Origin: an uncultured Clostridia bacterium
GTDB lineage: Bacteria; Bacillota; Clostridia; Oscillospirales; Acutalibacteraceae
Assembly (NCBI GenBank): GCA_937876205.1
Contig: CALEII010000052.1
Span: 381 to 64,380, forward strand
Direction of reading: 5' to 3'
Length of the DNA stretch: 64,000 nt
A program made the translations under genes and the position numbers. The notes under the pieces were generated by a model. That model worked only from the letters and a program-made list of their open reading frames with translations, ran no database searches and was not told the origin of the DNA. Below are positions 1,859-58,347 of this stretch, piece by piece (within the stretch, counting starts at the first letter, position 1; each line of letters opens with the position of its first letter).

Positions 1859-1945
1859 TTAAACACTTGAATAAACAGGAGCAATATGTTATAATATTTA
1901 CATTATGGCATATTGCTTTTAATTTTTTTGTTCGGAAGTGAAAAA

Positions 1946-8631: not shown

Positions 8632-9144
8632 TTATTTTGCAAATTTTTCAGCTTTGCTCAGAATTGTAATGAACGGACAAATCAGAAGCCCGCATATGAA
8701 ATTGCTGATTCCGTGCGTGATGTCAAAGGGGATTCCTGCAATAATCCACGAGATCATTCCTTTGAAATCAAGTCCGAAAAGCAGAGCCTGAGCAGGAGCA
8801 TAAAGAGTGCCGTATAAAAATCCGTGCAGTGCACAAACCGTCATATATATAACGGGTTTTGTTTTGTCGGGAAGTTTTTTCGGTATGAGCATTGTCATTC
8901 CCCACAGAACAGCCCATATGTATAGATAGGGAATCCACCATGTTGCGAATCCGTTCATAAGTCCCGTGAGAAAAACAAAAATATATAACGGATAAAGAGC
9001 TTTTTTTCTGTATACGACAGTCATTGAAACAATAAATGTATCGATAAGATGAATATTTGGCAGTACATCCATCAGAACCTTTGACGCATACATCAGCGCT
9101 CCGAGCATACCGAAAACGGCAATGTCTTTTACCTTAAGCTTCAT
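8632..9144 (-). CDS. ECF transporter S-component (substrate-capture subunit), probably cobalamin-related
   Basis: 170-aa polytopic membrane protein of S-component size and pattern. Its start overlaps the stop of the upstream DUF4430 gene (TAATG). The pair is led by a cobalamin riboswitch. Confidence 0.65.
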   Translation of the reverse strand: MKLKVKDIAVFGMLGALMYASKVLMDVLPNIHLIDTFIVSMTVVYRKKALYPLYIFVFLTGLMNGFATWWIPYLYIWAVLWGMTMLIPKKLPDKTKPVIYMTVCALHGFLYGTLYAPAQALLFGLDFKGMISWIIAGIPFDITHGISNFICGLLICPFITILSKAEKFAK

Positions 9145-9632
9145 TATTCAGCTCTGAATTCGTATGAGCTGCCTGCTGCGATTTCAGTCTGATCAACACC
9201 TGTTGAGCCGTAAGCACCGTCAACATAGAATGCCCAGTACTTGCCGTCTGTGGCATAGTCAAGTGTTTCACCGTCAACAGTCTTTACATAAAGACCGTAA
9301 GGCCCCTCATCACCTGTAATGATGTTGTTGTCAAGCAGAGCTTCGCCGACAGTTGTTTTGTCTGTGCTGACATTGTAGACCTTCTGTGTGCCGTCAAGAT
9401 GTGTTACGGTAAATGTGAAGCTTGTTTTTCCTTCACCCACATTCAGGGCGTCTGCTTGTGAATCTGCTTCATCCTTTACAGCTGCATCCTGTGTCTGTGA
9501 TGAAATCTCAGAGGGATTTTCATCGGGTGTTTCCTTGTTGTCGCTGCAACCTGTTGTAAACAGTGCCATAACCGCAATAAGCACAATACAAAGGAAGAAC
9601 GACAAACTTTTTTTAATGTTTGTCATTTTCAT
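9144..9632 (-). CDS. DUF4430 (transcobalamin-like) lipoprotein
   Basis: The start was moved to ATG 9632 (SD aaaggaga). The signal peptide carries a lipobox LFTTGC. The C-terminal GPYGLYVKTVDG...YWAFYVDG pattern is typical of DUF4430. The ORF-track N-terminal extension instead covers the riboswitch. Confidence 0.75.
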   Translation of the reverse strand: MKMTNIKKSLSFFLCIVLIAVMALFTTGCSDNKETPDENPSEISSQTQDAAVKDEADSQADALNVGEGKTSFTFTVTHLDGTQKVYNVSTDKTTVGEALLDNNIITGDEGPYGLYVKTVDGETLDYATDGKYWAFYVDGAYGSTGVDQTEIAAGSSYEFRAE

Positions 9633-9724
9633 TGTCTTTTTCTCCTTTGAAAAAATATAATGTGTCTTCTTTTTTACTGGCACTCGCAGTACTGTAAGAA
9701 GCAATTGCCTGAAAAATATTTCGA

Positions 9725-9870
9725 CTCGGTACTCTTTTTCCGCCTTCTCAGATTTCTCCAATGGCTTGTCTCTCTTTTGCGGTAAAGAGATAGAAAAAAG
9801 AACAAAATGTACCTCACGGCGACGGGCTCGTACAGGATTTTCACCTGTTTCCTTTTCAAGCAAGGTTATT
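9725..9870 (-). promoter_or_regulatory. cobalamin (B12) riboswitch
   Basis: The minus strand reads GAAAAGGAAACAGGTGAAAATCCTGTACGAGCCCGTCGCCGTGAGG, which matches the conserved AAGGGAA / GGTGAAAATCC / CCCGC-ACTGTGAGG core. A B12-box-like AGCCATTGGAGAAATCTGAGAAGGCGG follows. Boundaries are approximate. Confidence 0.8.
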
Positions 9871-9937
9871 TTATCACAGAAGCAGATTTATTGCAACAAA
9901 AATGTAAATATTTGGCTCTAAAAAAATAATATTATTG

Positions 9938-19109: not shown

Positions 19110-20423
19110 TTATTTTACAAATTCGTTATAAATAGCTTCAATTGTCTTGTGATAGTCTTTTTCTTCAACAGCAACAATGATGTTGATTTCACTTGAGCCC
19201 TGATCAATCATTCTTACATTGACCTTTGCGTTTGCAAGGGCTGTGAAAACTCTTGCTGCAGTACCTTCTGTGTTGACCATACCTCTGCCGACGATTGCGA
19301 TAAGGCAAAGACCTTCAACAAGTGTGATTGAATCGGGATTTACCTTCTTAACGATATCAGCAGTTATTGAACCCTTGTGTGAGCCGAGAGCATCAGCAGA
19401 AACAAGAACGCTCATTGTGTCAATACCTGAGGGGAGATGCTCGAATGAAACCTTGTGATTTTCAAGAACTTCAAGAACTTTTCTGCCGAAACCGAGCTCA
19501 GCATTCATCATATCTTTTTCAACGTGAATTGCTGTGATACCCTTTTTGCCTGCAATACCTGTGATGACTGTGGGAACATTGTTGCTTGAAGCCTTGTGAA
19601 CAATCATTGTTCCGGGTGCTTCGGGCTCGTTTGTGTTTCTGATATTGATGGGTATTCTGGCTTTTCTTACGGGGAAAATTGCTTCGTCGTGAAGAACTGT
19701 AGCACCCATATATGAAAGCTCACGAAGCTCTCTGTAAGTGATTTCGGGAATAGGCTGAGGATTGTCAATGCAACGGGGGTCAGCCATAAGCATACCTGAA
19801 ACATCAGTCCAGTTTTCATAGATATCTGCGCTTGCTGCACGGGCAACAATAGAGCCTGTAACGTCTGAGCCGCCTCTTGAGAATGTCTTTATCATACCGT
19901 TGGGAGATGCACCGTAGAAGCCGGGAATAACTGCATATTCGTGGTAGGAGAGAAGACGGCTGAGCTCTTTATCTGTCTTTTCAACATCAAGAAGACCGTT
20001 TTCATCAAAGAAAATACCTTCTTCTGCATCAATGAACTGGAAGCCGAGGAAATTTGCAAGAATTTTTGAGTTGAGGAACTCGCCACGGCTTGCAATGTAG
20101 TCCTGACTTGCGTGATGAAGAATAGCAACCTTGATACCCTGAAGGTCTTCTTCAAGAGAGAAGTCAATACCAAGGTCACGGATAATTCCGTTATATCTTT
20201 CTGTGATTTTATCAAATGTTTCGTCAATGCTCTTCTTGTCTCTTACAAGACGGAAGCACTGAAGAAGCATATCAGTAACCTTAACATCGTGTGTGTCTCT
20301 TTTTCCGGGTGCAGAAGCGATAACATATCTTCTGCTGGGGTCACTTTTGATAATGTCGGCAACCTTGCGGAACTGGTTTGCGTCAGCAAGTGAAGAACCG
20401 CCGAATTTTACTACTTTAAGCAT
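19110..20423 (-). CDS. lysC: aspartate kinase
   Basis: MLKVVKFGGSSLAD N-terminus, amino-acid-kinase fold motifs and C-terminal ACT repeats. Confidence 0.9.
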   Translation of the reverse strand: MLKVVKFGGSSLADANQFRKVADIIKSDPSRRYVIASAPGKRDTHDVKVTDMLLQCFRLVRDKKSIDETFDKITERYNGIIRDLGIDFSLEEDLQGIKVAILHHASQDYIASRGEFLNSKILANFLGFQFIDAEEGIFFDENGLLDVEKTDKELSRLLSYHEYAVIPGFYGASPNGMIKTFSRGGSDVTGSIVARAASADIYENWTDVSGMLMADPRCIDNPQPIPEITYRELRELSYMGATVLHDEAIFPVRKARIPINIRNTNEPEAPGTMIVHKASSNNVPTVITGIAGKKGITAIHVEKDMMNAELGFGRKVLEVLENHKVSFEHLPSGIDTMSVLVSADALGSHKGSITADIVKKVNPDSITLVEGLCLIAIVGRGMVNTEGTAARVFTALANAKVNVRMIDQGSSEINIIVAVEEKDYHKTIEAIYNEFVK

Positions 20424-23347: not shown

Positions 23348-23423
23348 TGGAGCTGCTAACCGGATTTGAACCGGTGACCTCATCCTTACCAAGGATGCAC
23401 TCTACCGACTGAGCTATAGCAGC
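23348..23423 (-). tRNA. tRNA-Thr (anticodon GGT), CCA encoded
   Basis: The reverse complement folds as a cloverleaf: acceptor GCTGCTA/TAGCAGC, anticodon stem CATCC/GGATG with loop TTGGTAA, T-arm ACCGG TTCAAAT CCGGT. Confidence 0.92.
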
Positions 23424-35863: not shown

Positions 35864-36964
35864 TTACTTATTCATAAAGTGTTTTAAAGCTAAAGCTGAG
35901 GCTGTTGCAATTCCTGCTGTCAGGAGAATTTTTTTACCGAGCTTTATTCCTTCGGAAACGGATGAAGGGGAGTGTGTGTATACAAATTCTTTCGCAGGCC
36001 ATTCAAGACGGAAATTATCAATATCCTTTGCAGTAACGGTGAATGTTTCGTATCTGTCAGGACTGTTTTCATAAATATCAAACACTCTGCCGCCTCTGTT
36101 TTTGCCGGGGCCGTAGATGTTGAAGCCCATTCCTTGAGTATAGCCCAGGTCAAGACTGCCGTGCTTCACAATAAAGCTGTTGTTGTGGTCGTGACCAAAG
36201 AAAAGACCGAGAACATCACCTTTTTCTTTGAGTGCTTCAACCTGTCTGCCTTTTTCGTCGGGTGATGCTGCATTTTCACCCATAAAAGAGCGCTCAGAAA
36301 CTGCGTATGGGGGAAGTCTGTAATAGCTGTCTGCAAATTTTCCCGCACCCTGCAGTGCTTTGTATGTTCCTTTCTTGACTTTCACAAAACAATCATAAAT
36401 ATCAGCGGGCGGAATATGCTGAAAAGCAAGAGCAGGTATAAAACTGCCGTTTTTTTCGGCAAGCTCATCTCTTTTTACGATATATTTATCAATAAGCTCA
36501 TTTTTTACGGGTAAATATTTCCCATTGACTTTTAAGCCGGAATCAAAACAATAAACACAGAATTTCGCAGTGGCATTATTGTCATAAACTGGGATGCAGT
36601 CAAAGTCATAGTTTTCGCCGATAAAATTATCATATAACTTATATATATTCCATTGAAATTCAGCATCAGCTTCTCCGAAAACATCGTGGTTGCCGAAAAC
36701 AGCTGTGAAAGGAATTCCTGATTCCTTTATCGGTGCGAGAATATTATTAAGTGTAATTGCCGCATTTGTCTTGCTGTCACCATGAGCCATTGTGATTCCG
36801 TAACCTTTTATCTGGTCACCTGTAAGAACAATAAGGTCAGGCTGTGTTTTTGCAATAATTTCTCTTGTAAGATTGACTGTGTCAGGGTTTGTTCTTGTAA
36901 TTTCCTGAATATCTGATAACTGAAGTATTCTGAATCTGCCGTTATTGAATCTGAGTTTTGTCAT
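35864..36964 (-). CDS. calcineurin-like metallophosphoesterase with C-terminal membrane anchor
   Basis: The start was moved to ATG 36964 (SD ggggtga), because the ORF-track extension runs through tRNA-Glu. Motifs LSDIQ, LTGDQ, GNHD and GHDHNN. Confidence 0.82.
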   Translation of the reverse strand: MTKLRFNNGRFRILQLSDIQEITRTNPDTVNLTREIIAKTQPDLIVLTGDQIKGYGITMAHGDSKTNAAITLNNILAPIKESGIPFTAVFGNHDVFGEADAEFQWNIYKLYDNFIGENYDFDCIPVYDNNATAKFCVYCFDSGLKVNGKYLPVKNELIDKYIVKRDELAEKNGSFIPALAFQHIPPADIYDCFVKVKKGTYKALQGAGKFADSYYRLPPYAVSERSFMGENAASPDEKGRQVEALKEKGDVLGLFFGHDHNNSFIVKHGSLDLGYTQGMGFNIYGPGKNRGGRVFDIYENSPDRYETFTVTAKDIDNFRLEWPAKEFVYTHSPSSVSEGIKLGKKILLTAGIATASALALKHFMNK

Positions 36965-36982
36965 ATAATCACCCCGTAAAAT

Positions 36983-37014
36983 AAAAAAGCACTTCAGAAC
37001 CGAAGTGCTTTTTT
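36983..37014 (-). terminator. rho-independent terminator downstream of tRNA-Glu
   Basis: Stem AAAAGCACTTC / GAAGTGCTTTT. A T-run follows on the minus strand. Confidence 0.7.
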
Positions 37015-37015
37015 G

Positions 37016-37090
37016 TGGTGACCCGGACGAGAATCGAACTCGTGTTACCGCCGTGAAAGGGCGGTGTCTTGACCGCTTGACCACCGGGCC
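37016..37090 (-). tRNA. tRNA-Glu (anticodon TTC), CCA encoded
   Basis: The reverse complement is GGCCCGGTGGTCAAGCGG...CCGCC CTTTCAC GGCGG...ACGAG TTCGATT CTCGT CCGGGTC ACCA. Confidence 0.92.
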
Positions 37091-37117
37091 ATATTACCGA
37101 CAGCTTAAGCTATCGGT

Positions 37118-37194
37118 TGGTAGCGGCAATCGGATTTGAACCAATGACCTGTCGGGTATGAACCGAATGCTCTAGCCAGCTGAGCTATGCCGCC
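37118..37194 (-). tRNA. tRNA-Met (anticodon CAT; elongator-like), CCA encoded
   Basis: The reverse complement is GGCGGCATAGCTCAGCTGGCTAGAGC, with anticodon loop TTCATAC and T-arm ATTGG TTCAAAT CCGAT. It resembles Bacillus elongator tRNA-Met, but a lysidine-modified Ile2 identity cannot be excluded. Confidence 0.85.
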
Positions 37195-47310: not shown

Positions 47311-47760
47311 TCACAGAATAATCATTTCGTCATCGCCGTCTTTGTTATAAAGACCGAATGCCTCATTATCATCACTTAAAAACACTTTAAGATATGTATT
47401 GAAATTAGGAGAGAGCTGATAATTGCTGAAATCCTCTTTGTTAATCCAGAAAACTTCACCCTCATCAGTTTTGTCAACAAGCTCACCGCTGAATTCTGTT
47501 ACTTTATAAAGCAGAACGATGTACCTTTCGTCAGTATCCTTGTGACACCAGTGAACCGTGCCGCATAGTTTCGGATTTTTTATATCAAGTCCTGTTTCTT
47601 CTTTTACTTCTCTTACAGCACTGTCTGTAAAGCTTTCACCTTTTTCTATGTGACCGCCCGGAAAAGTTACTCCTGTCCAGTATTTTACCCGTTTTTGAAC
47701 CAAAACCATACCGTTTTCGGGATTTTCTATCATTACCATATTGGTAAGTTCGCAATTCAT
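47311..47760 (-). CDS. NUDIX hydrolase
   Basis: Nudix box GGHIEKGESFTDSAVREVKEETGL. Confidence 0.88.
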   Translation of the reverse strand: MNCELTNMVMIENPENGMVLVQKRVKYWTGVTFPGGHIEKGESFTDSAVREVKEETGLDIKNPKLCGTVHWCHKDTDERYIVLLYKVTEFSGELVDKTDEGEVFWINKEDFSNYQLSPNFNTYLKVFLSDDNEAFGLYNKDGDDEMIIL

Positions 47761-47774
47761 AAAAATTACCTTCT

Positions 47775-47804
47775 AAAAATCAAAGCTGTACGGTATGTAC
47801 AGCC
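47775..47804 (-). terminator. rho-independent terminator of the arg-car operon
   Basis: Stem GCTGTAC / GTACAGC. A T-run follows on the minus strand. Confidence 0.7.
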
Positions 47805-47817
47805 TTGAAAATATATT

Positions 47818-50800
47818 TTAGTATTCTATAACGCCCGTGAAGATAAGGTCTGTTGTGCCTTCAAGAGTAATCTGATCATCCGTATAGTTGACAATCAGGT
47901 CGCCGCCCTTGAGCTTAACAACGATATCTTTGCCTTTTTCAATGTAGCCGAGTTCACAAGCTGCTGCAACTGCTGCACAAGCGCCTGTACCGCAGGCGTA
48001 TGTTTCACCGTTGCCTCTTTCCCATACTCTCATTCGAAGAGTTCTTGAATCAACAACTCTTACGAATTCTGTGTTGATTTTTTCGGGGAAGTATTTTGCA
48101 TTTTCAAATCCGGGTCCGATTTCCTTAAGGTTGTAAGCATCGATATGAGTACCGAATACTACACAGTGAGGATTACCTACATTTACACAAGTAACGTTGT
48201 ATTCCTTGCCGTCAACAACTATGGGCTGATTAACAACTTTACCCTTTGAAATGATGTTTGTGGGAATCTTTTCAGCTTCGAATTCTGCCTTACCCATATA
48301 AACCTTAACAGATTTTACTCGGCCGTTTTCTGTGTAAAGGTGAATTCTCTTTAAGCCTACAGGTGTTTCGATTGTCAGATGTGTCTTGTCAACGATGCCG
48401 TTGTCATAGAGGTATTTACCTGCGCATCTCAGACCGTTACCTGCAATGTAGCCCTTTGAGCCGTCCTTATTGTACATAAGCATCTTTGCATCAGCGATAT
48501 CTGACTTTTCTATAAGAACAATACCGTCTGAACCGATACCGTAATGTCTGTTGCAGAAGTTTATAGCAAGAACCTCGGGAGAAGTGATTTCACCGTTAAG
48601 ATTATCAAAGAAGATGAAGTCATTGCCTGAGCCCTGCATCTTAGCGAATTTAAGCTTTGTGGGCTCTGTACGCATTTCATTGATGTTTACAAGCTCTGTA
48701 TTAGCCTGAGTAAAGCCGCTTGCAAGAATGTCAGCAAGAACGTTTGCTGTGTCAATTGATGTAAGTGTTGCAACTGAGAGCTGAAGAGCACGTCTGTGAA
48801 GCTTGATGAAGTCATCAACAACATCAAGGGGAGTGCCTGTGTAAACGATATACTTGATCTTGCCGCTTTCAAGAAGGTCCATACTTGTGTTTGATTCATC
48901 ATAAAGCTTGTTGACAACAGTAACATCAATGTCAACTGAGCCGATAACCTTTGCTGTGCCTTCTGTAGCGTAAATCTTGAGACCAAGGTCGTGGAACTTT
49001 CTTGCAAGGTCAACAACTTCGGGCTTGTCAGCATCCTTGACAGTGATGTAAACACCCATTTCCTTGCCGAGTTCCTTGGGAGCAATTTCAAAGCCTGCTG
49101 AAACGAGACCCTTGAAGAGTGCTTCGTCGATTGTTTTGCCCACACCGAGAACTTCACCTGTTGATTTCATTTCGGGACCAAGGCTTGAGTTTGCATCGAG
49201 AAGCTTCTCAAATGAGAATACGGGAACCTTGACTGCAAAGTAAGGGGGAGTCTTGTAAAGACCTGTGCCGAAGCCGAGGTCAACGAGGGGAGTACCGGTC
49301 ATAACCTTTGTTGCGATATCAACCATAGGTACGCCTGTAACCTTACTGATATAAGGAATGGTTCTTGAAGCTCTGGGGTTAACCTCGATAACATAAAGCT
49401 CATTCTCATAAATGAGGTACTGAATGTTAACAAGACCCTTTGTACCGAGAGCAAGAGCAAGATTTGTTGAGCAGTCAATGATTGTCTGCTTCATTGTGTC
49501 ACGCAGATTATAAGGGGGATAAACTGCAATTGAGTCACCTGAGTGAACACCTGCACGTTCAACGTGCTGCATAATACCGGGGATAAGAACATCCTTGCCG
49601 TCTGAAATAACGTCAACTTCAAGCTCAGAGCCCATCATATATTTGTCAACAAGAACGGGATTCTCAATTTTACCTGAAAGAATGATGTTCATATACTTTC
49701 TTACGTCTTCGTCATTATAGGCAATAGTCATATTCTGACCGCCGATAACGTACGAGGGACGAAGAAGTACGGGATATGTGAGGGTGTGGGCTGCATCAAG
49801 AGCTTCTTCAAGTGTGAGAACACCCATACCCTTAGGTCTTCTGATGCCGAATTTTTCAAGAAGAGCATCAAACTTTTCTCTGTCTTCGGCAATGTCAATA
49901 CCTTCTGCAGATGTACCGAAAATTCTGAAACCGTTGTCATCGAGGAATTTTGTCAGCTTGATAGCTGTCTGGCCGCCGAAAGCAACAACGACACCTTCTG
50001 GCTGTTCTGTCTTGATGACATTAAGAACATCTTCGGGAGTGAGAGGCTCAAAGTAGAGTCTGTCTGCTGTGTCAAAGTCAGTTGAAACAGTTTCGGGGTT
50101 GTTGTTGATGATAACAACCTCATAACCGAGGTTCTTGAGAGTCCATACACAGTGAACGGACGAGTAGTCGAATTCAATACCCTGACCGATTCTGATAGGA
50201 CCTGAACCGAGAACGATAATCTTTTTCTTCGTGTTGCCCTTGAGATATTCTCTTGCTTCACAGTCTTTGTCATATGTGGAGTAGAAATAAGGTGTCTGAG
50301 CCTTATATTCAGCTGCACAGGTGTCAACCATCTTGTAAACAGCATCACGGGGATTTTCTATCTTTGAACCGCTGATTCTTTCAATGGCGGCATCAGTATA
50401 GCCGTATTTCTTACCTTTGAGGTAAAGCTCATCTGTAAGACCGTTTGCAATTTCAGCTTCATAGTTTGCAAGATTTCTGAGCTTTTCAATGAACCATTCA
50501 TCAATCTTTGTGATGTCGTGAATAGTTTCTGTTGAAACGCCTCTCTTGATAGCTTCAAAAACTGTGAAAAGACGGATATCATCAACATCGTGAAGCTTTG
50601 CTACGATGTCAATTTCGGGATCCTGAACCTTCTTGAAATTGAGTGTATCAAGTGAAATTTCAGCACCTCTTACAGCCTTCATAATAGCAGCTTCAAAGCA
50701 GGGAGCGATTGACATAACCTCGCCTGTTGCCTTCATCTGAGTGCCGAGCTTTCTCTTTTCGTTGATGAACTTGTCAAAGGGCCATTTAGGAAGCTTAATT

Positions 50801-51861
50801 ACGCAATAGTCAACTGTGGGCTCGAAGCAAGCAAATGTCTCACCTGTGACGTCGTTTCTGATTTCATCGAGAGTGTAGCCGAGAGCAACTTTTGTTGCAA
50901 CCTTAGCAATGGGATAGCCTGTTGCCTTTGATGCGAGTGCAGATGACCGTGAAACACGGGGGTTAACCTCAATAACAGCATATTCAAATGATTCGGGATT
51001 AAGCGCAAACTGACAGTTACAGCCACCCTCGATGCCGAGAGCTTCAATAATCTTGAGTGAAGCGTTACGAAGCATCATAAACTCTTTATTTGAAAGAGTA
51101 ACAGCGGGAGCGATAACAATACTGTCACCTGTATGAACACCGACGGGATCGAAGTTTTCCATTGAGCAGACAGCAATTGCATTACCTGCGCTGTCACGCA
51201 TTGCTTCAAATTCAATTTCTTTCCAGCCGTAGATATATTTTTCAACAAGAATCTGATTGATAGGTGAGAGAAGAAGACCGTTGTTTACAATAGGCATAAG
51301 CTCTTCTTCATTGTAAGCAACACCGCCACCTGCACCGCCAAGGGTGAAAGCGGGACGGATGATAACGGGGAAGCCGATTCTCTTTGCAATCTCACGTGCC
51401 TGTTCAGCTTCTGTTGCGATATCAGAAGGAATGCAGGGCTGACCGATTGATTCCATTGTTTCTTTGAAAAGCTCTCTGTCTTCAGAACGGTCAATAGCTT
51501 CGGCATTGGTACCGATGAGCTTTACGCCGTGCTTTGCAAGGAAGCCGCTCTTTGCAAGCTGCATACCGATGGTAAGACCTGTCTGACCGCCGAGGCCGGC
51601 AAGAACTGAGTCGGGTTTTTCTTTTTCGATGATTCTCATAACAGTTTCTTCTGTCAGAGGTTCAAGATAGATTTCATCCGCATTTGCATTATCTGTCATA
51701 ATGGTAGCAGGGTTTGAGTTGACAAGTATTACGTCAAGACCTTCATCTTTAAGGATTTTACAAGCCTGAGTACCTGCGTAGTCAAATTCGGCAGCCTGTC
51801 CGATAACGATAGGACCTGAACCGATAACGAGAACCTTCTTTATATCTTTATTAAGCGGCAT
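47818..51861 (-). CDS. carB: carbamoyl-phosphate synthase large subunit fused to a C-terminal diaminopimelate-epimerase-like domain
   Basis: 1347 aa in one uninterrupted frame. Residues 1 to ~1067 are a full CarB (two ATP-grasp halves plus an MGS-like allosteric domain). The last 280 aa (47821-48660) carry DapF motifs: KMQGSGNDF, NKDGS....AGNGLRC, GNPH, ERGNGETYACGTGA. SD gggaggtga; the start overlaps the carA stop (TAATG). Confidence 0.9.
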   Translation of the reverse strand: MPLNKDIKKVLVIGSGPIVIGQAAEFDYAGTQACKILKDEGLDVILVNSNPATIMTDNANADEIYLEPLTEETVMRIIEKEKPDSVLAGLGGQTGLTIGMQLAKSGFLAKHGVKLIGTNAEAIDRSEDRELFKETMESIGQPCIPSDIATEAEQAREIAKRIGFPVIIRPAFTLGGAGGGVAYNEEELMPIVNNGLLLSPINQILVEKYIYGWKEIEFEAMRDSAGNAIAVCSMENFDPVGVHTGDSIVIAPAVTLSNKEFMMLRNASLKIIEALGIEGGCNCQFALNPESFEYAVIEVNPRVSRSSALASKATGYPIAKVATKVALGYTLDEIRNDVTGETFACFEPTVDYCVIKLPKWPFDKFINEKRKLGTQMKATGEVMSIAPCFEAAIMKAVRGAEISLDTLNFKKVQDPEIDIVAKLHDVDDIRLFTVFEAIKRGVSTETIHDITKIDEWFIEKLRNLANYEAEIANGLTDELYLKGKKYGYTDAAIERISGSKIENPRDAVYKMVDTCAAEYKAQTPYFYSTYDKDCEAREYLKGNTKKKIIVLGSGPIRIGQGIEFDYSSVHCVWTLKNLGYEVVIINNNPETVSTDFDTADRLYFEPLTPEDVLNVIKTEQPEGVVVAFGGQTAIKLTKFLDDNGFRIFGTSAEGIDIAEDREKFDALLEKFGIRRPKGMGVLTLEEALDAAHTLTYPVLLRPSYVIGGQNMTIAYNDEDVRKYMNIILSGKIENPVLVDKYMMGSELEVDVISDGKDVLIPGIMQHVERAGVHSGDSIAVYPPYNLRDTMKQTIIDCSTNLALALGTKGLVNIQYLIYENELYVIEVNPRASRTIPYISKVTGVPMVDIATKVMTGTPLVDLGFGTGLYKTPPYFAVKVPVFSFEKLLDANSSLGPEMKSTGEVLGVGKTIDEALFKGLVSAGFEIAPKELGKEMGVYITVKDADKPEVVDLARKFHDLGLKIYATEGTAKVIGSVDIDVTVVNKLYDESNTSMDLLESGKIKYIVYTGTPLDVVDDFIKLHRRALQLSVATLTSIDTANVLADILASGFTQANTELVNINEMRTEPTKLKFAKMQGSGNDFIFFDNLNGEITSPEVLAINFCNRHYGIGSDGIVLIEKSDIADAKMLMYNKDGSKGYIAGNGLRCAGKYLYDNGIVDKTHLTIETPVGLKRIHLYTENGRVKSVKVYMGKAEFEAEKIPTNIISKGKVVNQPIVVDGKEYNVTCVNVGNPHCVVFGTHIDAYNLKEIGPGFENAKYFPEKINTEFVRVVDSRTLRMRVWERGNGETYACGTGACAAVAAACELGYIEKGKDIVVKLKGGDLIVNYTDDQITLEGTTDLIFTGVIEY

Positions 51862-52916
51862 TACTTGTCACCTCCCATAAGTGAAATAAATTTATCGTAA
51901 ATTTTGTCTGTGTCAACTGTAGCTGAGAAACAATCGGGTGTGAACTGAATTGAAAATGCCTTTGCATATTCAAGCCCTTCAATTGTGTTATCACTGACAT
52001 TTGTGAAAAGAACTTTTGCATTTGCAGCAGCTTCGCTTACAACATATCCGTGGTTCTGATGTGTTGCGAAAACCTTGCCGTCGTCCATATTTCTAACGGG
52101 AACACTGCCGCCTCTGTGACCGAACTTCATTTTTGAAGTTTTACCACCCTGAGCCAGAGCCATAACCTGATGACCGAGACCGAAGCCGAACATAGGCTTA
52201 TCAGCCATAATAGATTTAACTTCTGCAATAAGTTCAGTGTTTTCTTCAGGGTTTCCCGGGCCGTTTGTAACAACAACACCGTCGAATGTGCCCTCAAGAA
52301 TTTCAGAAGCCTTTGTGTTATAAGGGAATACAGTCACATTGCAGCCCTTTTCTGTAAGCTTTTCGATTGCATTTGCCGCAGCACCGCAGTCAAGCATTGC
52401 AACTGAATATTTTCCGTCTTCTGCTTCAAAATAAGCTTTTTTGTTTGATGCAACTGATGAGAGTGCATCTTTGATTTCATATGCTTTGAGTGCATCAAGG
52501 TCAACATTTGCAGGATTTTCTGTGATACAGGCATTCATAGCACCGTTTTCACGGACAAGCTTTGTAAGCTCTCTTGTGTCAACGTCGCATATTGCAATAA
52601 TGCCGTTTTCCTTGAGATAATCCTCAAGCCCGCCTTCGCATCTGAAGTTTGAAGGCATATCACAGATTTCTCTTGCAACATAGCCCTTAATGACAGGCTT
52701 GGCACCGTTTGTGTCTTCATTGATGATGCCGTAATTGCCGATAAGAGGGAATGTCTGAAGAACAATCTGACCGTAATAAGCGGCATCTGTAAGAGTTTCG
52801 ATGTAACCGACAACACCTGTTGTGAAAACAAGCTCGCCGACTGTTTCACCTGTTGCACCGTAACCCTTGCCCTCAAAAACGTGACCGTCTTCAAGTACAA
52901 TGTACATCTTTTTCAT
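51861..52916 (-). CDS. carA: carbamoyl-phosphate synthase small subunit homologue with degenerate glutaminase active site
   Basis: CarA N-domain and a GATase fold (SNGPGNP-type TNGPGNP). The nucleophile motif reads FGFGLGHQ instead of FGICLGHQ, and the His/Glu motif reads IQFTPD instead of (V/F)Q(Y/G)HPE. Confidence 0.85.
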   Translation of the reverse strand: MKKMYIVLEDGHVFEGKGYGATGETVGELVFTTGVVGYIETLTDAAYYGQIVLQTFPLIGNYGIINEDTNGAKPVIKGYVAREICDMPSNFRCEGGLEDYLKENGIIAICDVDTRELTKLVRENGAMNACITENPANVDLDALKAYEIKDALSSVASNKKAYFEAEDGKYSVAMLDCGAAANAIEKLTEKGCNVTVFPYNTKASEILEGTFDGVVVTNGPGNPEENTELIAEVKSIMADKPMFGFGLGHQVMALAQGGKTSKMKFGHRGGSVPVRNMDDGKVFATHQNHGYVVSEAAANAKVLFTNVSDNTIEGLEYAKAFSIQFTPDCFSATVDTDKIYDKFISLMGGDK

Positions 52917-52962
52917 AAAATCACCCTTTATATTAGATTGAAAACTCAGGGGCTTTCATTAT

Positions 52963-53886
52963 TTACTGTTTTTCCTGATACTGTTCCTTCATAAGCTTAA
53001 CAAGAACAGCTTTCTGTGCATGAAGTCTGTTTTCAGCCTCTTCAAAGATTTCCTTTGCGTGTGCTTCAAATACTTCAGCAGTAATTTCTTCTTCTCTGTG
53101 AGCAGGTAAGCAGTGAAGAACCATTGCGTCAGGCTTTGCAACTGCCATAAGTGAGGAATTTATCTGATAGCCTGCGAATACTTTCTTTCTTTCTTCAGCT
53201 TCAGCTTCTTCACCCATTGAAGCCCATACGTCTGTGTAAAGCACGTCAGCATCCTTTGCAGCTTCATAAATGTCTGTTGTGAGTGTGAATTTACCTGTTT
53301 CGTTTGCCCATTTTACAATATCTGCATCAGGCTCATAGCCCTTGGGGCAAGCGACAGCAACATCCATACCTACCTTTATACAACCGACGATTAGTGAATT
53401 GCACATATTGTTGCCGTCACCGATGAATGTAAGCTTCATTCCCTTGAAGGTGTTCTTGAATTCACGGATTGTCATAAGGTCTGCAAGAACCTGACAGGGA
53501 TGAGCGTAGTCTGTAAGACCGTTGATGATGGGGATTGAACCGTAGTTTGCGAGCGTTTCAACCTCTTCCTGGTCGAATGTTCTTATCATAATACCGTCAA
53601 GGTAACGTGAGAGAACTCTTGCTGTGTCTTCAACAGGTTCGCCTCTGCCGAGCTGTGTGTTGGCGTTTGAAAGGAAAAGAGCTGAACCGCCGAGATCATA
53701 CATACCCACTTCAAAGGAAACTCTTGTTCTTGTTGATGACTTTGCAAAAATCATACCGAGAGTTTTGCCTTTGAGATAGTGATGCTCAATATTGTGCTTT
53801 TTTTCATATTTGAGCTGGTCTGCAAGGTTGAGTATTGAGAGAATTTCTTTCTCTGAATAGTCACCTAATTTAAGTAAATGTTTCAT
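52963..53886 (-). CDS. argF: ornithine carbamoyltransferase
   Basis: STRTR, HPCQ and HCLP motifs. Confidence 0.92.
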   Translation of the reverse strand: MKHLLKLGDYSEKEILSILNLADQLKYEKKHNIEHHYLKGKTLGMIFAKSSTRTRVSFEVGMYDLGGSALFLSNANTQLGRGEPVEDTARVLSRYLDGIMIRTFDQEEVETLANYGSIPIINGLTDYAHPCQVLADLMTIREFKNTFKGMKLTFIGDGNNMCNSLIVGCIKVGMDVAVACPKGYEPDADIVKWANETGKFTLTTDIYEAAKDADVLYTDVWASMGEEAEAEERKKVFAGYQINSSLMAVAKPDAMVLHCLPAHREEEITAEVFEAHAKEIFEEAENRLHAQKAVLVKLMKEQYQEKQ

Positions 53887-55046
53887 TCTTCAATTACCTC
53901 CGTGATTATATTCATAGCCTTCTCAAGCTCTTCGTCAGAGATGTTGAGAGGGGGAAGAAGTCTGATTTTTGTTTTTGCGGTAAGGGGAAGGACGCCTTTT
54001 TCGATGCATTTCATAACAACTTCTTTTGCGTCTTTTGTAGTTTCTATGCCGAGCATAAGTCCCATACCCGTTACACTTTTAACATTTTTGCATTCTTCAA
54101 GGCGTTTTCTGATGTATTCACCTTTTGCTCTGACACAAGCAAGGAATTTATCGTCAAGTCTTTTGACTATGTTTAAAGCACCTGCGGCAACAACGGGATT
54201 CATTCCGAACGTTGAGCCGTGTGAAGAGGGAGTCATTGTGTCTTTAGTCTTTTCGCCGAAGAGACATACACCCATCGGAAGACCGCCTGCAACACCTTTT
54301 GCTGTTGATACAAGGTCAGGCTCAATATCAAACTGCTGATATGCGTACATACTGCCTGTTCTGCCGTTGCCTGTCTGAACTTCGTCTATTATTACAAGTA
54401 TATCATATTTCTGACAGAATTCATATACTTTTTTTATAAAAATTTTATTTAAAGGAATAACTCCGCCTTCACCCTGTACCATTTCCATAATGACGGCACA
54501 GACATTCTCATTGTATACGCTCATAAATGAGTCGAAATTGTTAGCCTCTGCATATACAAAACCCTCCGGAAAGGGTCCGAAGGTTGTGTGGAAGACATCC
54601 TGACCTGTAGCCTTGAGAGTGGCAAGAGTTCTGCCGTGGAAGCTCTGGGTGAGTGAGATTATTACATTTCTGTCGGGATTCTCATATTTGTCAAGAGAAT
54701 ATTTTCTTGCAGCTTTTATAGCACATTCGTTGGCTTCTGCACCTGAGTTGCCGAAGAAACACTTCTTCATTCCTGATTTTTTACAAAGAAGCTCAGCAAG
54801 CTCCACACCGGGCTGTGTATAAAAGAGATTTGATGTGTGCTGAAGAGTGTTCAGCTGCTTTGTAACAGCTTCAACCCATTCCTTGTCACAGTAACCGAAA
54901 GCATTTACTCCGATGCCTGTGCCCATATCAATGTATTCCTTGCCGTTTTCATCAACGGCAACAGCCCCGTGACCGCTGACAAGGGTTACGGGGAATCTGC
55001 CGTATGTATTGGCAATATACTGTTTATCTTTTTCGATTGTTGTCAT
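53883..55046 (-). CDS. argD: acetylornithine aminotransferase
   Basis: Class III aminotransferase motifs (GSGAEANE-type NSGAEANE, DEVQTG, STAKG). ATGA overlap with argF. Confidence 0.9.
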   Translation of the reverse strand: MTTIEKDKQYIANTYGRFPVTLVSGHGAVAVDENGKEYIDMGTGIGVNAFGYCDKEWVEAVTKQLNTLQHTSNLFYTQPGVELAELLCKKSGMKKCFFGNSGAEANECAIKAARKYSLDKYENPDRNVIISLTQSFHGRTLATLKATGQDVFHTTFGPFPEGFVYAEANNFDSFMSVYNENVCAVIMEMVQGEGGVIPLNKIFIKKVYEFCQKYDILVIIDEVQTGNGRTGSMYAYQQFDIEPDLVSTAKGVAGGLPMGVCLFGEKTKDTMTPSSHGSTFGMNPVVAAGALNIVKRLDDKFLACVRAKGEYIRKRLEECKNVKSVTGMGLMLGIETTKDAKEVVMKCIEKGVLPLTAKTKIRLLPPLNISDEELEKAMNIITEVIEE

Positions 55047-55055
55047 AATTACACC

Positions 55056-55910
55056 TTACTCTACAAACATCGTGCCGATACCTTCATCGGTAAGAGTTTC
55101 AATGAGGATTGCGTGGGGGATTCTGCCGTCAATGATGAAGACCTTCTTCACACCCATTCTGATAGCCTCTGTACAGCACTGTACCTTGGGAATCATACCG
55201 CCTGATATAACACCGTCGTGCATAAGCTCTCTCGCATCGCTGACATAGAGCTTCTTGATAAGTGTTGAAACATCATCCTTGTCACGCAGAAGTCCCGGAA
55301 TGTCAGTCATATTGATAAGACTTTCTGCCTTTAATGCACCTGCAATGTATGCTGCAGCAGTGTCTGCATTTATGTTATATGAATTGTTCTCTTCATCAAA
55401 AGCAACAGTTGAAATAACGGGGATATAATTCTTGTCAAGAATATCTGTGATGATTTCTGTGTTGACTTCTGTTATATCACCGACAAAACCGTGAACATCG
55501 TCAAGCTGTTTAGCCTTTATCATCTGACCGTCAATACCGCAGATGCCGACAGCCTTGCCGCCCATATTGCCTATTTTATTAACAAGATTCTTGTTGATTT
55601 TGCCTGCAAGAACCATCTGAACAGCCTCAATTGTTTCTTCGTCTGTTACACGAAGACCGTCAATGAATTCACTCTTTTTGCCTGTTTTTGTGAGAAGCTC
55701 ATTGATTTCGGGGCCGCCGCCGTGCACAAGCACAACCTTTATACCGATAAGCGAAAGCAGTACAAGGTCACCGATAACTGCTTCCTTGAGCTCTTCGCTT
55801 ATCATTGCATTTCCGCCGTATTTTACGACGATTATTTTATTTCTGTATTCCTGTATATAAGGGAGAGCCTGAGTGAGTATTTCGGCTCTCTGTGCATTTG
55901 TAATATCCAT
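55056..55910 (-). CDS. argB: acetylglutamate kinase
   Basis: VVKYGGNAM and VLVHGGGP motifs. Confidence 0.92.
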   Translation of the reverse strand: MDITNAQRAEILTQALPYIQEYRNKIIVVKYGGNAMISEELKEAVIGDLVLLSLIGIKVVLVHGGGPEINELLTKTGKKSEFIDGLRVTDEETIEAVQMVLAGKINKNLVNKIGNMGGKAVGICGIDGQMIKAKQLDDVHGFVGDITEVNTEIITDILDKNYIPVISTVAFDEENNSYNINADTAAAYIAGALKAESLINMTDIPGLLRDKDDVSTLIKKLYVSDARELMHDGVISGGMIPKVQCCTEAIRMGVKKVFIIDGRIPHAILIETLTDEGIGTMFVE

Positions 55911-57124
55911 TATGTTCTGTAATCTCCGTTTATTTTAACATAGTCGTAAGTCAGGTCGCAGCCTCTGGCAACAGCTGTTGAGTCACCGTCATTGAGGTCA
56001 ACATTTACCTTGATTTCATCACAGAGAAGAATTTCTTTTGCCTTATCTTCACTGAAAGGAACGCCAGCACCGTTCTTGCATACTTCAATTGTGCCTTTTT
56101 CACTTGTGAATGAAACATCAATCTTTGTAACATCAACATCTGCACCACTGTAGCCTATAGCACACAGTACACGTCCCCAGTTTGCATCGGCACCGAACAT
56201 TGCAGCCTTGAAAAGTGATGAGCAGATAACTGATTTTGCAACTGTTTTTGCAGTGTGCCAGTCTTTACCGCCTGATACAAAGCATTCAACAAGCTTTGTT
56301 GCGCCTTCACCGTCTTTTGCAATAGCTCTGCAGAGCTTTTCTGTAATCATTGCAAGAGCCTTTGTGAAAACTTCAAAGTCTTCGTTTTCTTCGGTGATAA
56401 GTTCGTTTCCTGCCATACCGTTTGCCATAACGGAAACCATATCGTTTGTTGATGTATCACCGTCAATGCTTATCATATTGAAGCTCTTCTGAGCATCTGA
56501 ATAAAGAGCCTTGTGAAGCATCTCGGGAGAAATAGCTGCATCTGTTGTTATGAAAACGAGCATTGTTGCCATATTCGGGTGAATCATACCTGAGCCCTTT
56601 GCAATACCGCCCATTTTACATTCTTTTCCTCCGAGAGTGAAGCTTACGGCAAATTCCTTTTTGACTGTATCCGTTGTCATAATTGCTTCTGCAGCGTTTG
56701 TGCTGTTGTCATAGCCGAGCTCAGAAACAAGCTGAGACATACCGTCTTCAATTGGAGTGATTTCAAGAGGCTGACCGATAACACCTGTTGATGCAACAAT
56801 GACATCCTTTGCATCAACTCCTGTGGCTTCTGCTGTGATTTCACACATCCTTGTTGCAATTTCAACACCGTCAGCGTTGCAGGTGTTTGCATTTCCGCTG
56901 TTGCATATCATAGCCTGAGCTGTGCCGTCTGAGATGTTGTCTTTTGTAACGTAAATCGGAGCACCCTTTACGAGATTGAGAGTATATATGGCTGCAGCAG
57001 ATGCCTTGCAGTCACTTACGATAAGCGCAAGGTCACGCTTTGTCTTGTTTTTTCTGATTCCGCAGTGAATACCACTTGCCTTGAACCCTTTTGGAGCACA
57101 GACTCCGCCGTTTATGTATTCCAT
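55910..57124 (-). CDS. argJ: bifunctional ornithine acetyltransferase / N-acetylglutamate synthase
   Basis: Autoprocessing site ATMLVFITTDA. Start taken as ATG 57124, because the ORF-track TTG at 57130 sits too close to the SD aaagga. Confidence 0.9.
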   Translation of the reverse strand: MEYINGGVCAPKGFKASGIHCGIRKNKTKRDLALIVSDCKASAAAIYTLNLVKGAPIYVTKDNISDGTAQAMICNSGNANTCNADGVEIATRMCEITAEATGVDAKDVIVASTGVIGQPLEITPIEDGMSQLVSELGYDNSTNAAEAIMTTDTVKKEFAVSFTLGGKECKMGGIAKGSGMIHPNMATMLVFITTDAAISPEMLHKALYSDAQKSFNMISIDGDTSTNDMVSVMANGMAGNELITEENEDFEVFTKALAMITEKLCRAIAKDGEGATKLVECFVSGGKDWHTAKTVAKSVICSSLFKAAMFGADANWGRVLCAIGYSGADVDVTKIDVSFTSEKGTIEVCKNGAGVPFSEDKAKEILLCDEIKVNVDLNDGDSTAVARGCDLTYDYVKINGDYRT

Positions 57125-57138
57125 AGTCAAAATTCCTT

Positions 57139-58077
57139 TCAGATGTCAAGTGATGTTGTTTCGTCAATTCCCATTGAAATGTTCATACACTGAACTGCGG
57201 CACCCGAAGCACCTTTTCCGAGATTGTCAAAAACACTTGTTATAAATATTCTTTCTTCATTGCCTGAAATGAGTATCTTCATTGAATCTTTACCGCTTTT
57301 TTCGTTGGCAGAAACCATTGATACGGGAGTTTCACCGCCATATAACGGAAGAACTTCAATAAACTTTGAGTCTTTGTAGTGATTTGCAAATACAGAATGA
57401 ATTTCAGCAATGCTTGTCTTATTCAGAAGCTTTGTGAAAAGGGGAATAGTCGTAGCCATTCCGCTGTAATAGTCATCAACAATGGGAGTGAAAATGGGGA
57501 AGTCGTCGAGCCCTGTGATAACTTTCATTTCCTTGAGATGCTTGTGATTCTGTGTCAGACCGTACTGTCTGGGAGCAAACAGATCGGAAGTTTTTTCATT
57601 CTCATAGTCATTTATCATTTTTTTGCCGCCGCCGCTGTAGCCGGTGAGTGAATGACACACAACGGGGTAGTCGGAAGGCATAATTCCCTTTGCAATAAGG
57701 GGATAAACTATTGAAATGAATCCGCTTGCGTGACAGCCGGGGACTGCAATGCGCTTTGATGATGAAATCTTGGCTCTGTGTTCATCTGAAAGCTCTGCAA
57801 AACCGTATGCCCAGTCGGGATTTGTTCTGTGTGCTGTTGATGTGTCAATGATAACAGTACTGTCATTTGCACACAGAGAAACAGATTCTCTTGAGGCTTC
57901 ATCGGGCAGACAAAGAAATGTGATGTCACTCATATTTATCAGGCGTCTTCGTTCTTCTCTGTCTTTTCTCAGATTTTCGTTTATTGAGAGCAGCTCAATG
58001 TCTTCTCTTTTGCTCAGATGGTCAAAAAGCCTGAGTCCTGTTGTGCCCTGATTGCCGTCAATGAATACCTTATACAT
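57139..58077 (-). CDS. argC: N-acetyl-gamma-glutamyl-phosphate reductase
   Basis: The start was moved to ATG 58077 (SD aggag). GNQGTTG NAD-binding motif and active-site PGCHASG. Confidence 0.9.
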   Translation of the reverse strand: MYKVFIDGNQGTTGLRLFDHLSKREDIELLSINENLRKDREERRRLINMSDITFLCLPDEASRESVSLCANDSTVIIDTSTAHRTNPDWAYGFAELSDEHRAKISSSKRIAVPGCHASGFISIVYPLIAKGIMPSDYPVVCHSLTGYSGGGKKMINDYENEKTSDLFAPRQYGLTQNHKHLKEMKVITGLDDFPIFTPIVDDYYSGMATTIPLFTKLLNKTSIAEIHSVFANHYKDSKFIEVLPLYGGETPVSMVSANEKSGKDSMKILISGNEERIFITSVFDNLGKGASGAAVQCMNISMGIDETTSLDI

Positions 58078-58109
58078 AAAAAATACTCCTATTAAAAATC
58101 TATTATAAT

Positions 58110-58137
58110 ATTTTACTCTTTTTCGTGTGAATGTCAA
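58110..58137 (-). promoter_or_regulatory. sigma-A type promoter of the arg operon
   Basis: On the minus strand: TTGACA, 16-nt spacer, TAAAAT, about 30 nt upstream of the argC ATG. Confidence 0.55.
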
Positions 58138-58145
58138 TAAAATTC

Positions 58146-58159
58146 TGAATATTTATGCA
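58146..58159. promoter_or_regulatory. candidate ARG box (ArgR/AhrC operator half)
   Basis: TGAATATTTATGCA versus the core consensus TGAATwwwwATTCA (1 mismatch). It lies immediately upstream of the -35 element. No convincing second box was seen. Confidence 0.3.
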
Positions 58160-58347
58160 ACTTTGTTATCTTGTATCATATTGGGGATATTTTTTTAAGA
58201 ATATTGTTGAAATGGTCAATAGTCAGGTGATTAAAATATTATATATAAATATATCCCTGCCGCATAGTCTGCAACAGGGACGGATGTATAAGTTTTGTAT
58301 TGTACGGACGAATATTGTTTTAATAAATATGCAAATTGAATGTATAT

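Follow-up and report, generated by a model that had tools for sequence, protein, structure and literature searches.

We analyzed a 64,000-nt stretch of DNA from an uncultured Clostridia bacterium of the Acutalibacteraceae (contig CALEII010000052.1), hereafter the window, to which all positions refer. Its arginine operon, argC-argJ-argB-argD-argF-carA-carB::dapF, ends in an unusual carbamoyl phosphate synthetase (CPS): the small subunit carries none of the three residues of the glutaminase triad, and the large subunit is joined to a complete homolog of diaminopimelate epimerase (DapF) in which one of the two catalytic cysteines is replaced. The seven genes form one compact minus-strand transcription unit at 47780-58159. 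The overall explanation that fits best, at a probability of roughly 0.6, is an arginine-repressible operon for citrulline synthesis, served by an ammonia-fed CPS that carries a DapF-derived, non-epimerase and probably ligand-binding module. Catalytic sites are given below in E. coli and H. influenzae residue numbering.

Alignment of the 351-aa CarA (51861-52916, minus strand) with the E. coli CarA structures 1t36, 1c30 and 1a9x places Gly246, Thr326 and Asp328 at the positions of Cys269, His353 and Glu355 (minus-strand codons at 52179-52181, 51939-51941 and 51933-51935, respectively). A preliminary description of this DNA had called the CarA glutaminase dead, and the comparison bears this out residue by residue. 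With glycine instead of the nucleophile, threonine instead of the general base, and aspartate at Glu355, formation of the glutamyl thioester is therefore impossible. The remaining fold is intact, comprising an N-terminal CPSase small-chain domain (PF00988, 160 bits) and a class-I glutamine amidotransferase (GATase) fold (PF00117, 118 bits), and the protein scores above the cutoff of the 'glutamine-hydrolysing' model TIGR01368 (361 bits versus 307). E. coli CarA variants C269G and C269S, described by Rubino, Nyunoya and Lusty in 1986, are said to lose glutamine-dependent activity and to keep NH3-dependent activity. The CPS of the window is likely to depend on ammonia, as the preliminary description had also suggested; this is the only chemically reasonable reading of the Gly/Thr/Asp combination, and it is reinforced by three related loci. 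One of them (L060, 6461-10996) has a single 1512-aa open reading frame (ORF) in which about 150 aa of CarA N-terminal domain lead through a short linker into CarB and then the DapF-like domain, all of the amidotransferase domain being deleted, and two others (L038 and L064) have no carA at the locus.

The degenerate triad is stable among close relatives. All 39 of the closest CarA cluster representatives from a database of 5.8 billion proteins, at 59-91% identity, carry it, 36 as Gly-Thr-Asp and three as variants. Two metagenome-assembled genome (MAG) loci show full operon synteny with the window; their triads read GTD (L082, CarA 88% identical) and SYG (L083). Codon comparison of the window with these two loci gave ratios of nonsynonymous to synonymous substitution (dN/dS) of 0.12 (L082) and 0.15 (L083) for the N-terminal domain of CarA and 0.17 (L082) and 0.25 (L083) for its amidotransferase domain; the rest of the operon, meaning the arg genes and carB, gave 0.007-0.09. 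Selection on CarA is relaxed yet clearly purifying, and the N-terminal domain that contacts CarB is the better conserved half of the protein. CarA would thus be retained as a non-catalytic partner of CarB, for the sake of that contact.

The large-subunit gene (47818-51861, minus strand, 1347 aa) runs from carB into the DapF part without a stop. The CarB model NF003671 covers residues 1-1047 and the DapF model TIGR00652 residues 1071-1345, the latter scoring 258 bits where the cutoff is 115. What the preliminary description had termed a CarB::DapF-like fusion is therefore real, and the finding can be extended, because the C-terminal part (aa 1071-1347, 47821-48651, minus strand) is a full-length DapF homolog with the complete fold, 38-40% identical to DapFs of solved structure. 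Alignments to 2otn, 9mro and 2q9h put Ala1140 (48442-48444) at the position of H. influenzae Cys73, and Cys217 is retained as Cys1290 (47992-47994). Also retained are the equivalents of the residues that contact diaminopimelate (DAP), namely N11, N64, G74, N75, N157, N190, E208, R209, G218 and S/T219. When the last 460 residues were modeled with AlphaFold, the DapF part had a predicted local distance difference test (pLDDT) score mostly above 90; the model gave no confident inter-domain geometry. Foldseek matched the domain best to DapF structures throughout its top matches, led by ligand-bound 9mro with a TM-score of 0.92. With Cys73 lost, the domain is very likely unable to run two-base epimerization. 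A DapF mutant with both cysteines changed, C73A/C217A, had no activity (PMC6061791).

A junction-alignment scan that took one genome per GTDB species confirmed at least 315 relatives, of which the best 80 loci were examined, and carB was fused to a DapF-like domain in every examined locus with enough sequence. Cysteine is absent from position 73 in all 82 fusion sequences compared (Ala in 74, Gly in five, and Ser, Thr and Asp in one each), and alanine occupies this position in 115 of 120 database matches. Cys217 is retained in 77 of the 82 fusions; three copies from Dysosmobacter/Clostridia are among those lacking it. The substrate-contacting residues are 91-100% conserved in the same set, the exception being N11, which is Asn in 62 (76%) and Asp in 20. 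The dN/dS of the domain, 0.028 and 0.055 in the two comparisons, is as low as that of the arg enzymes.

An assembly artifact was rejected as the source of the fusion, since the same uninterrupted fusion occurs in more than 60 independently assembled genomes. Database proteins of 284 aa that resemble stand-alone DapF-like proteins of the Ala type were likewise rejected, every contig examined showing a frameshift, an in-frame stop or a short call inside a longer carB::dapF, and 449/501-aa 'MGS+DapF' proteins were set aside on the same grounds, their recurring lengths arising from conserved internal Met codons. One such case is L001 (9940-9944; MAG GCA_054290425.1), where an in-frame TAG at a conserved carB Lys codon splits the gene call into 878 and 449 aa; this stems either from an error in sequencing or from recent pseudogene formation. 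Frameshifts of a similar kind in L087 and L089 account for 'stand-alone' or 449/501-aa entries. The word-indexed protein search returned only fusion fragments of up to about 520 aa and missed full-length 1347-aa orthologs, so that its identities understate closeness; contig look-up showed that such orthologs exist and are 97% identical in the DapF part. The public record gives the fusion protein no more specific name than 'carbamoyl-phosphate synthase large subunit'.

Control by arginine is suggested by the region upstream of argC. An ARG-box-like palindrome, TGAATATTTATGCA (58146-58159), abuts the -35 hexamer of the operon promoter on its upstream side as a putative ArgR/AhrC operator, and a second ARG-box-like site with one mismatch (58320-58333) lies in the same intergenic region about 170 bp further upstream. 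The relaxed pattern TGMATWWWWATKCA, allowing at most one mismatch, has just two matches in the 64 kb, both in the 270-bp intergenic region upstream of argC. From the position of these two sites, the operon is probably under ArgR/AhrC control. No argG, argH or argR was found by Pfam annotation among the genes of the 64-kb window, and Rfam revealed no regulatory RNA within the operon or in front of it.

We propose that this operon, in a Clostridia bacterium of the gut or rumen, would be repressible by arginine and would convert glutamate to citrulline through the cyclic acetyl pathway (ArgJ, ArgB, ArgC and ArgD, followed by ArgF), bringing its own CPS with it. That CPS would take free ammonia and not glutamine; in habitats with millimolar ammonia, such as gut and rumen, direct use of NH3 would spare the ATP spent by glutamine synthetase. 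A search with the operon proteins (tblastn) found no second CPS and no stand-alone dapF within the window. At somewhat less than even odds, the DapF-derived domain still binds DAP or a close analog and, attached to CarB's allosteric domain, serves as a sensor or conformational module without catalysis, a prediction made because Cys217 and essentially all DAP-contacting residues are under strong purifying selection. Stated more broadly, the domain would bind a DAP-like ligand or at least need its pocket, and would be a sensor, conformational or oligomerization module at the allosteric end of CarB.

This ligand-sensor role is the weakest step of the explanation, and several observations weigh against it or against the explanation as a whole. 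The same degenerate domain sits on a pyrimidine-operon CPS, so the sensed signal would not be specific to arginine. Constraints of the fold could account in part for the conserved pocket residues. The modeled linker appears flexible and lends no support to a fixed contact between the DapF-derived and allosteric domains. Both cysteines are lost in Dysosmobacter copies, and the remaining cysteine is thus not universally needed. Finally, the number of ARG-box matches (two) is not above chance (2.3 expected in the window), leaving their position alone as telling.

The distribution of the fusion bears on how this domain arose. The fusion is old and lineage-wide in Clostridia, with carriers in Oscillospiraceae, Dysosmobacter, Oscillibacter, Acutalibacteraceae, Christensenellaceae, Feifaniaceae and further Clostridia from human, ruminant, rabbit and chicken guts. 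The usual gene order is (argJ-argB-argD-argF)-carA-carB::dapF. A very prevalent gut species (L085/L086, its protein present in 869 collection blocks) has argCJBDF-carA-carB::dapF with an intact CarA triad. The cultured carrier Dysosmobacter segnis BX15 (L053, 223-10996) has the fusion in a pyrimidine operon, pyrC-pyrK-pyrD...pyrB-pyrI-carA-carB::dapF-like; its CarA has the intact triad, and its DapF-like domain has Ala and Ser in place of the two cysteines. A sister class of CarB-DapF fusions that retain both cysteines (P0245, 1349 aa; P0105/L087, L087 5401-9512; L090; L091; L093) came to light when 1.84 billion cluster representatives were searched exhaustively and a metagenome scan was then made. 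Genes of this class lie in the context (glnA / purA / ANTAR regulator / purF)-carA(CHE)-carB::dapF-pyrG-(nadE)-class-I/II aminotransferase, and the proteins have an 'ISTSAKGR' motif resembling the canonical nucleotide-effector site, where the arg-operon type reads 'VYTG'. The correlation with context is not absolute, as L094 has an Ala-type domain within a housekeeping context. Members of the sister class are probably truly bifunctional CPS/DapF proteins encoded beside a candidate LL-DAP aminotransferase. In the simplest history that these sequences suggest, carB was first fused to a functional neighboring dapF in a housekeeping, glutamine-centered cluster, and copies recruited to arg (and pyr) operons afterwards lost Cys73 with the domain retained.

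The main rival of the ligand-sensor role is one that we regard as rather unlikely. The DapF domain would be a purely structural relic: once a CPS gene bearing a still functional fused DapF had been duplicated or relocated, the epimerase would have become redundant and Cys73 would have been lost, the domain persisting without any ligand because CarB needs it for folding, stability or oligomerization. Two-cysteine fusions in housekeeping clusters fit such a course. So does the presence of the degenerate form in arg and pyr as well as glnA/purF contexts, which speaks against a signal tied to one pathway, and so does the loss of the second cysteine in some copies; moreover, E. coli DapF is an obligate dimer and also a non-catalytic partner of RppH (PMC6061791). 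A relic does not readily explain, however, why the polar pocket residues N64, N75, N157, N190, E208, R209 and G218, which have no obvious structural role, stand at 91-100% when mean column identity is 63% in the 57-sequence family alignment A2, or why the domain evolves as slowly as the arg enzymes.

It is quite improbable that the domain is still an enzyme, whether an epimerase in which another base or water replaces Cys73 or a one-base catalyst of a different reaction. A parallel is provided by Cys-to-Thr homologs of proline racemase, which turned into 3-hydroxyproline dehydratases; one-cysteine relatives in this superfold are real enzymes, and structures of trans-3-hydroxy-L-proline dehydratase are among the fold matches of the domain. 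Retention of Cys217 along with the whole substrate pocket is compatible with catalysis, and the position after Asn75 (Gly76), which changes in a systematic way to Ala, Ser, Cys or Asn, could be a remodeled catalytic site, although the window's own sequence retains Gly76. Ala and Gly are nevertheless incapable of acting as bases, Cys217 too is gone from the three Dysosmobacter/Clostridia copies, and the arginine pathway offers no candidate substrate.

Slightly less probable again is the proposal that triad loss and fusion make up one co-evolved adaptation, an ammonia-fed CPS for arginine synthesis controlled by a novel effector. The preliminary description had reasoned in this way, holding that both CPS subunits deviate at the catalytic or architectural level and that a coherent adaptation, rather than decay, would link the two. 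Both subunits do deviate, in the CarA triad and at DapF Cys73, in the clade of the window each of the two features occurs, is conserved and is subject to selection, and every degenerate triad seen sits in a fusion-bearing CPS, though sampling was anchored on the fusion. The two do not always occur together, however: 39 of the 59 fusion-bearing species with an adjacent carA have an intact Cys-His-Glu triad, which contradicts the strong form of the proposal. Nor is the fusion confined to arg operons, being found in the pyrimidine operon of Dysosmobacter and in glnA/purF/pyrG clusters as well. The CarB tree shows numerous losses, and they are late. Degenerate or absent glutaminases fall in 10 separate clades of this simple neighbor-joining tree, L060, L038 and L064 being the extreme cases, and Fitch parsimony counts 10 changes. 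Where the CarA triad is not intact, the Cys position holds G or S and the His position any of at least 10 different residues. Because intact triads are common in fusions and fusions occur outside arg operons, the fusion can be taken as old and lineage-wide and triad loss as younger; the latter appears to have recurred in about 10 events, and the two features appear evolutionarily independent. Degenerate triads were seen in 18 of 44 arg-linked copies versus none of 12 elsewhere, a difference that is suggestive and not statistical proof, as the 12 are mostly of one clade. The argument against decay stands, given purifying selection and a dead triad fixed down to 59% identity; the single coupled adaptation does not. 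Control through the appended domain, also proposed there, has the standing of a hypothesis.

Decay of the locus, with carA and the DapF part pseudogene-like and a canonical CPS elsewhere doing the work, has a negligible chance of being correct: CarA is the fastest-evolving operon protein and carB of one related MAG has the in-frame TAG noted above, but the window and more than 60 genomes have intact reading frames, the dead triad is as stable as described, translational coupling is preserved, and dN/dS far below 1 in both regions essentially refutes it.

The operon that the preferred explanation assigns to citrulline synthesis is compact, and its gene models agree with the earlier description of seven minus-strand genes in one unit. 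From the promoter, these are argC (57139-58076, 312 aa; N-acetyl-gamma-glutamyl-phosphate reductase; TIGR01851, 376 bits, cutoff 230, aligned from ORF residue 22), argJ (55910-57130, alternative ATG at 57124; bifunctional ornithine acetyltransferase / N-acetylglutamate synthase; TIGR00120, 469 bits, and PF01960, 484 bits), argB (55056-55910; acetylglutamate kinase; TIGR00761, 256 bits), argD (53883-55046; acetylornithine aminotransferase; TIGR00707, 422 bits) and argF (52963-53886; ornithine carbamoyltransferase; TIGR00658, 444 bits), followed by carA and carB::dapF. The five arg enzymes had been called ordinary, and each scores above the curated cutoff of its own NCBIfam model (equivalog or subfamily). 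The tiny gaps and overlaps were confirmed, with TAATG at argJ/argB, where the argB start overlaps the argJ stop, and at carA/carB, ATGA at argD/argF, and remaining gaps of 8, 9 and 46 nt. Upstream, the proposed sigma-70-type promoter TTGACA-16 nt-TAAAAT (58110-58137, minus strand) proved to be the best consensus match of the region, agreeing at 11 of 12 consensus positions and ranking top of 28 promoter-like sites; an alternative, TTCACA-18-TATAAT (58131-58102, minus strand), overlaps it. The true start of argC is the ATG at 58076, preceded by a GGAG ribosome-binding site and in agreement with the 312-aa L082 ortholog. TTG 58137, the start of the mechanically called ORF, was rejected because this TTG belongs to the -35 hexamer. 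Downstream, the intrinsic terminator was also verified, its hairpin being placed at 47808-47780 (12-bp stem, 5-nt loop, then TTTTT; 47780-47808, minus strand) between the carB::dapF stop (47818-47820) and the start of a NUDIX gene (47760).

The carB portion itself (aa 1-1050, 48712-51861, minus strand) comprises two ATP-grasp halves, an oligomerization domain and an MGS-like allosteric domain. NF003671 scores 1434 bits over CarB residues 1-1047 of the 1058-position model, and all CarB domains are present (PF02786 twice, PF25596 twice, PF02787 and PF02142). At the nucleotide effector site of the E. coli type, the phosphate-binding residues K954, T974, T977 and K993 are kept and N1015Y and T1017G are changed; at the ornithine site, E783, D791 and T1042 are kept, with changes at two of the five residues (E892V and Y1040T). 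The junction to the DapF part, at about aa 1048-1070 (...NTELVNINEMRTEPTKL..., 48652-48720, minus strand), has the motif NTELVDINxMR common to fusions. Its roughly 20 residues are modeled at low confidence (pLDDT about 60), and the junction is probably flexible.

Directly downstream of carB::dapF, past the terminator, lies the NUDIX hydrolase gene (47311-47760, minus strand). A functional partnership on the analogy of E. coli DapF and RppH was considered for this neighbor and rejected as coincidental synteny, since no relatives but the two closest share the adjacency. Besides the fused domain, the window has a single DAP-related gene, for a lysC-like aspartate kinase with an ACT domain (19110-20423, minus strand), which catalyzes the first step of the DAP/lysine pathway; it was the sole DAP-relevant Pfam match among the other 39 large ORFs. 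Elsewhere, a cobalamin riboswitch (9694-9891, minus strand; RF00174 at 42 bits) overlaps the 5' portion of the mechanically called ORF 9144-9863 and precedes a second ORF, 8632-9144. Pfam matched neither of these ORFs, and the two may be an uncharacterized B12-regulated gene pair. Three minus-strand tRNA genes lie within 37019-37194 and at 23351-23423; the one at 37019-37090 overlaps a GTG-started mechanical ORF for a metallophosphoesterase (35864-37084), whose true start is therefore further downstream. Three consecutive fused ABC exporter genes occupy 44-5739 on the plus strand, each combining transmembrane and ATPase domains (604, 631 and 644 aa).

The locus can be compared with several known systems. 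Like E. coli CarAB (1JDB, 1BXR, 1C30), the window enzyme has two subunits from coupled genes, the same domain order and a full-length CarB, and shares the phosphate-binding residues of the nucleotide site and three ornithine-site residues. Unlike it, the window CarA lacks all three triad residues, CarB has some 300 extra C-terminal residues with the equivalents of E892, Y1040, N1015 and T1017 changed, and the genes lie inside an arg operon. Arginine CPSs of the Bacillus type in Firmicutes are encoded in an argCJBD-carAB-argF operon repressed by AhrC/ArgR; they depend on glutamine, keep the triad intact and lack a DapF domain. The window shares with these a dedicated CPS in an arg operon beside argF, the cyclic ArgJ pathway and ARG-box-like promoter sites, and differs in its gene order (argCJBDF-carAB), dead triad and DapF domain.

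To our knowledge, vertebrate CPS I is the only well-known ammonia-dependent CPS whose glutaminase domain is dead. That enzyme lacks the catalytic Cys and has free ammonia as its sole nitrogen substrate (PMC7657897). CPS I (5DOU) resembles the window enzyme in keeping a glutaminase-like domain without the catalytic Cys and in serving the ornithine-to-citrulline step, and the CPS I structure 5dot is matched by the window CarA. CPS I is, however, a single polypeptide that needs N-acetylglutamate and in which the change arose once, in tetrapods, whereas the window subunits are separate genes and the bacterial loss recurred, as far as the CarB tree indicates, about 10 times. By analogy, the locus can be read as an arginine-operon CPS of the Bacillus type combined with a CPS I-like loss of the glutaminase.

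The fused domain has precedents of its own. It shares with DapF (2OTN, 9MRO, 2GKE) a full-length fold above the TIGR00652 cutoff, Cys217 and the substrate contacts, and differs in having Ala at Cys73 and hence no two-base mechanism, and in being fused to CarB where DapF is a free dimeric enzyme. In E. coli, DapF binds the Nudix hydrolase RppH and activates it without catalysis (PMC6061791), so that there is precedent for a DapF fold working by protein contacts instead of epimerization; the DapF of that pair is nonetheless a separate, catalytically competent protein with no link to CPS. In Pseudomonas, an inactive dihydroorotase (PyrC') is required for assembly of aspartate transcarbamoylase (cited in PMC6022934). 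PyrC' is likewise a dead homolog of a pathway enzyme kept as a structural or regulatory part of a complex that uses carbamoyl phosphate, and differs from the window domain in fold, in pathway and in being a separate subunit. Because a defining catalytic feature fails in each, the CarA and DapF parts of the window enzyme fall functionally outside the glutamine-hydrolyzing CarA and DapF families. Literature searches aimed at a CarB-DapF fusion and at a bacterial CPS with an inactive glutaminase found no published description of either.

CPS is a textbook amidotransferase. Repeated loss of its glutaminase in abundant gut and rumen Clostridia would be a natural replicated experiment in how and why an amidotransferase abandons glutamine. 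The dead CarA and the fused DapF both pass their family cutoffs, and automated reconstructions may therefore credit such genomes with a glutamine-dependent CPS and with a DapF that is possibly absent, errors that would affect predictions of lysine, peptidoglycan and nitrogen metabolism. The fusion is widespread and apparently unstudied, and cultured Dysosmobacter segnis BX15 makes experiments feasible. It is unlikely, taken jointly, that gut and rumen Clostridia about ten times turned their arg-operon CPS ammonia-dependent, in a bacterial parallel to the origin of CPS I, and that the pseudo-epimerase is a DAP-sensing allosteric module. If both were true, the supply of carbamoyl phosphate for arginine and pyrimidines would be tied to the pool of a cell-wall and lysine precursor, a regulatory link new to description.

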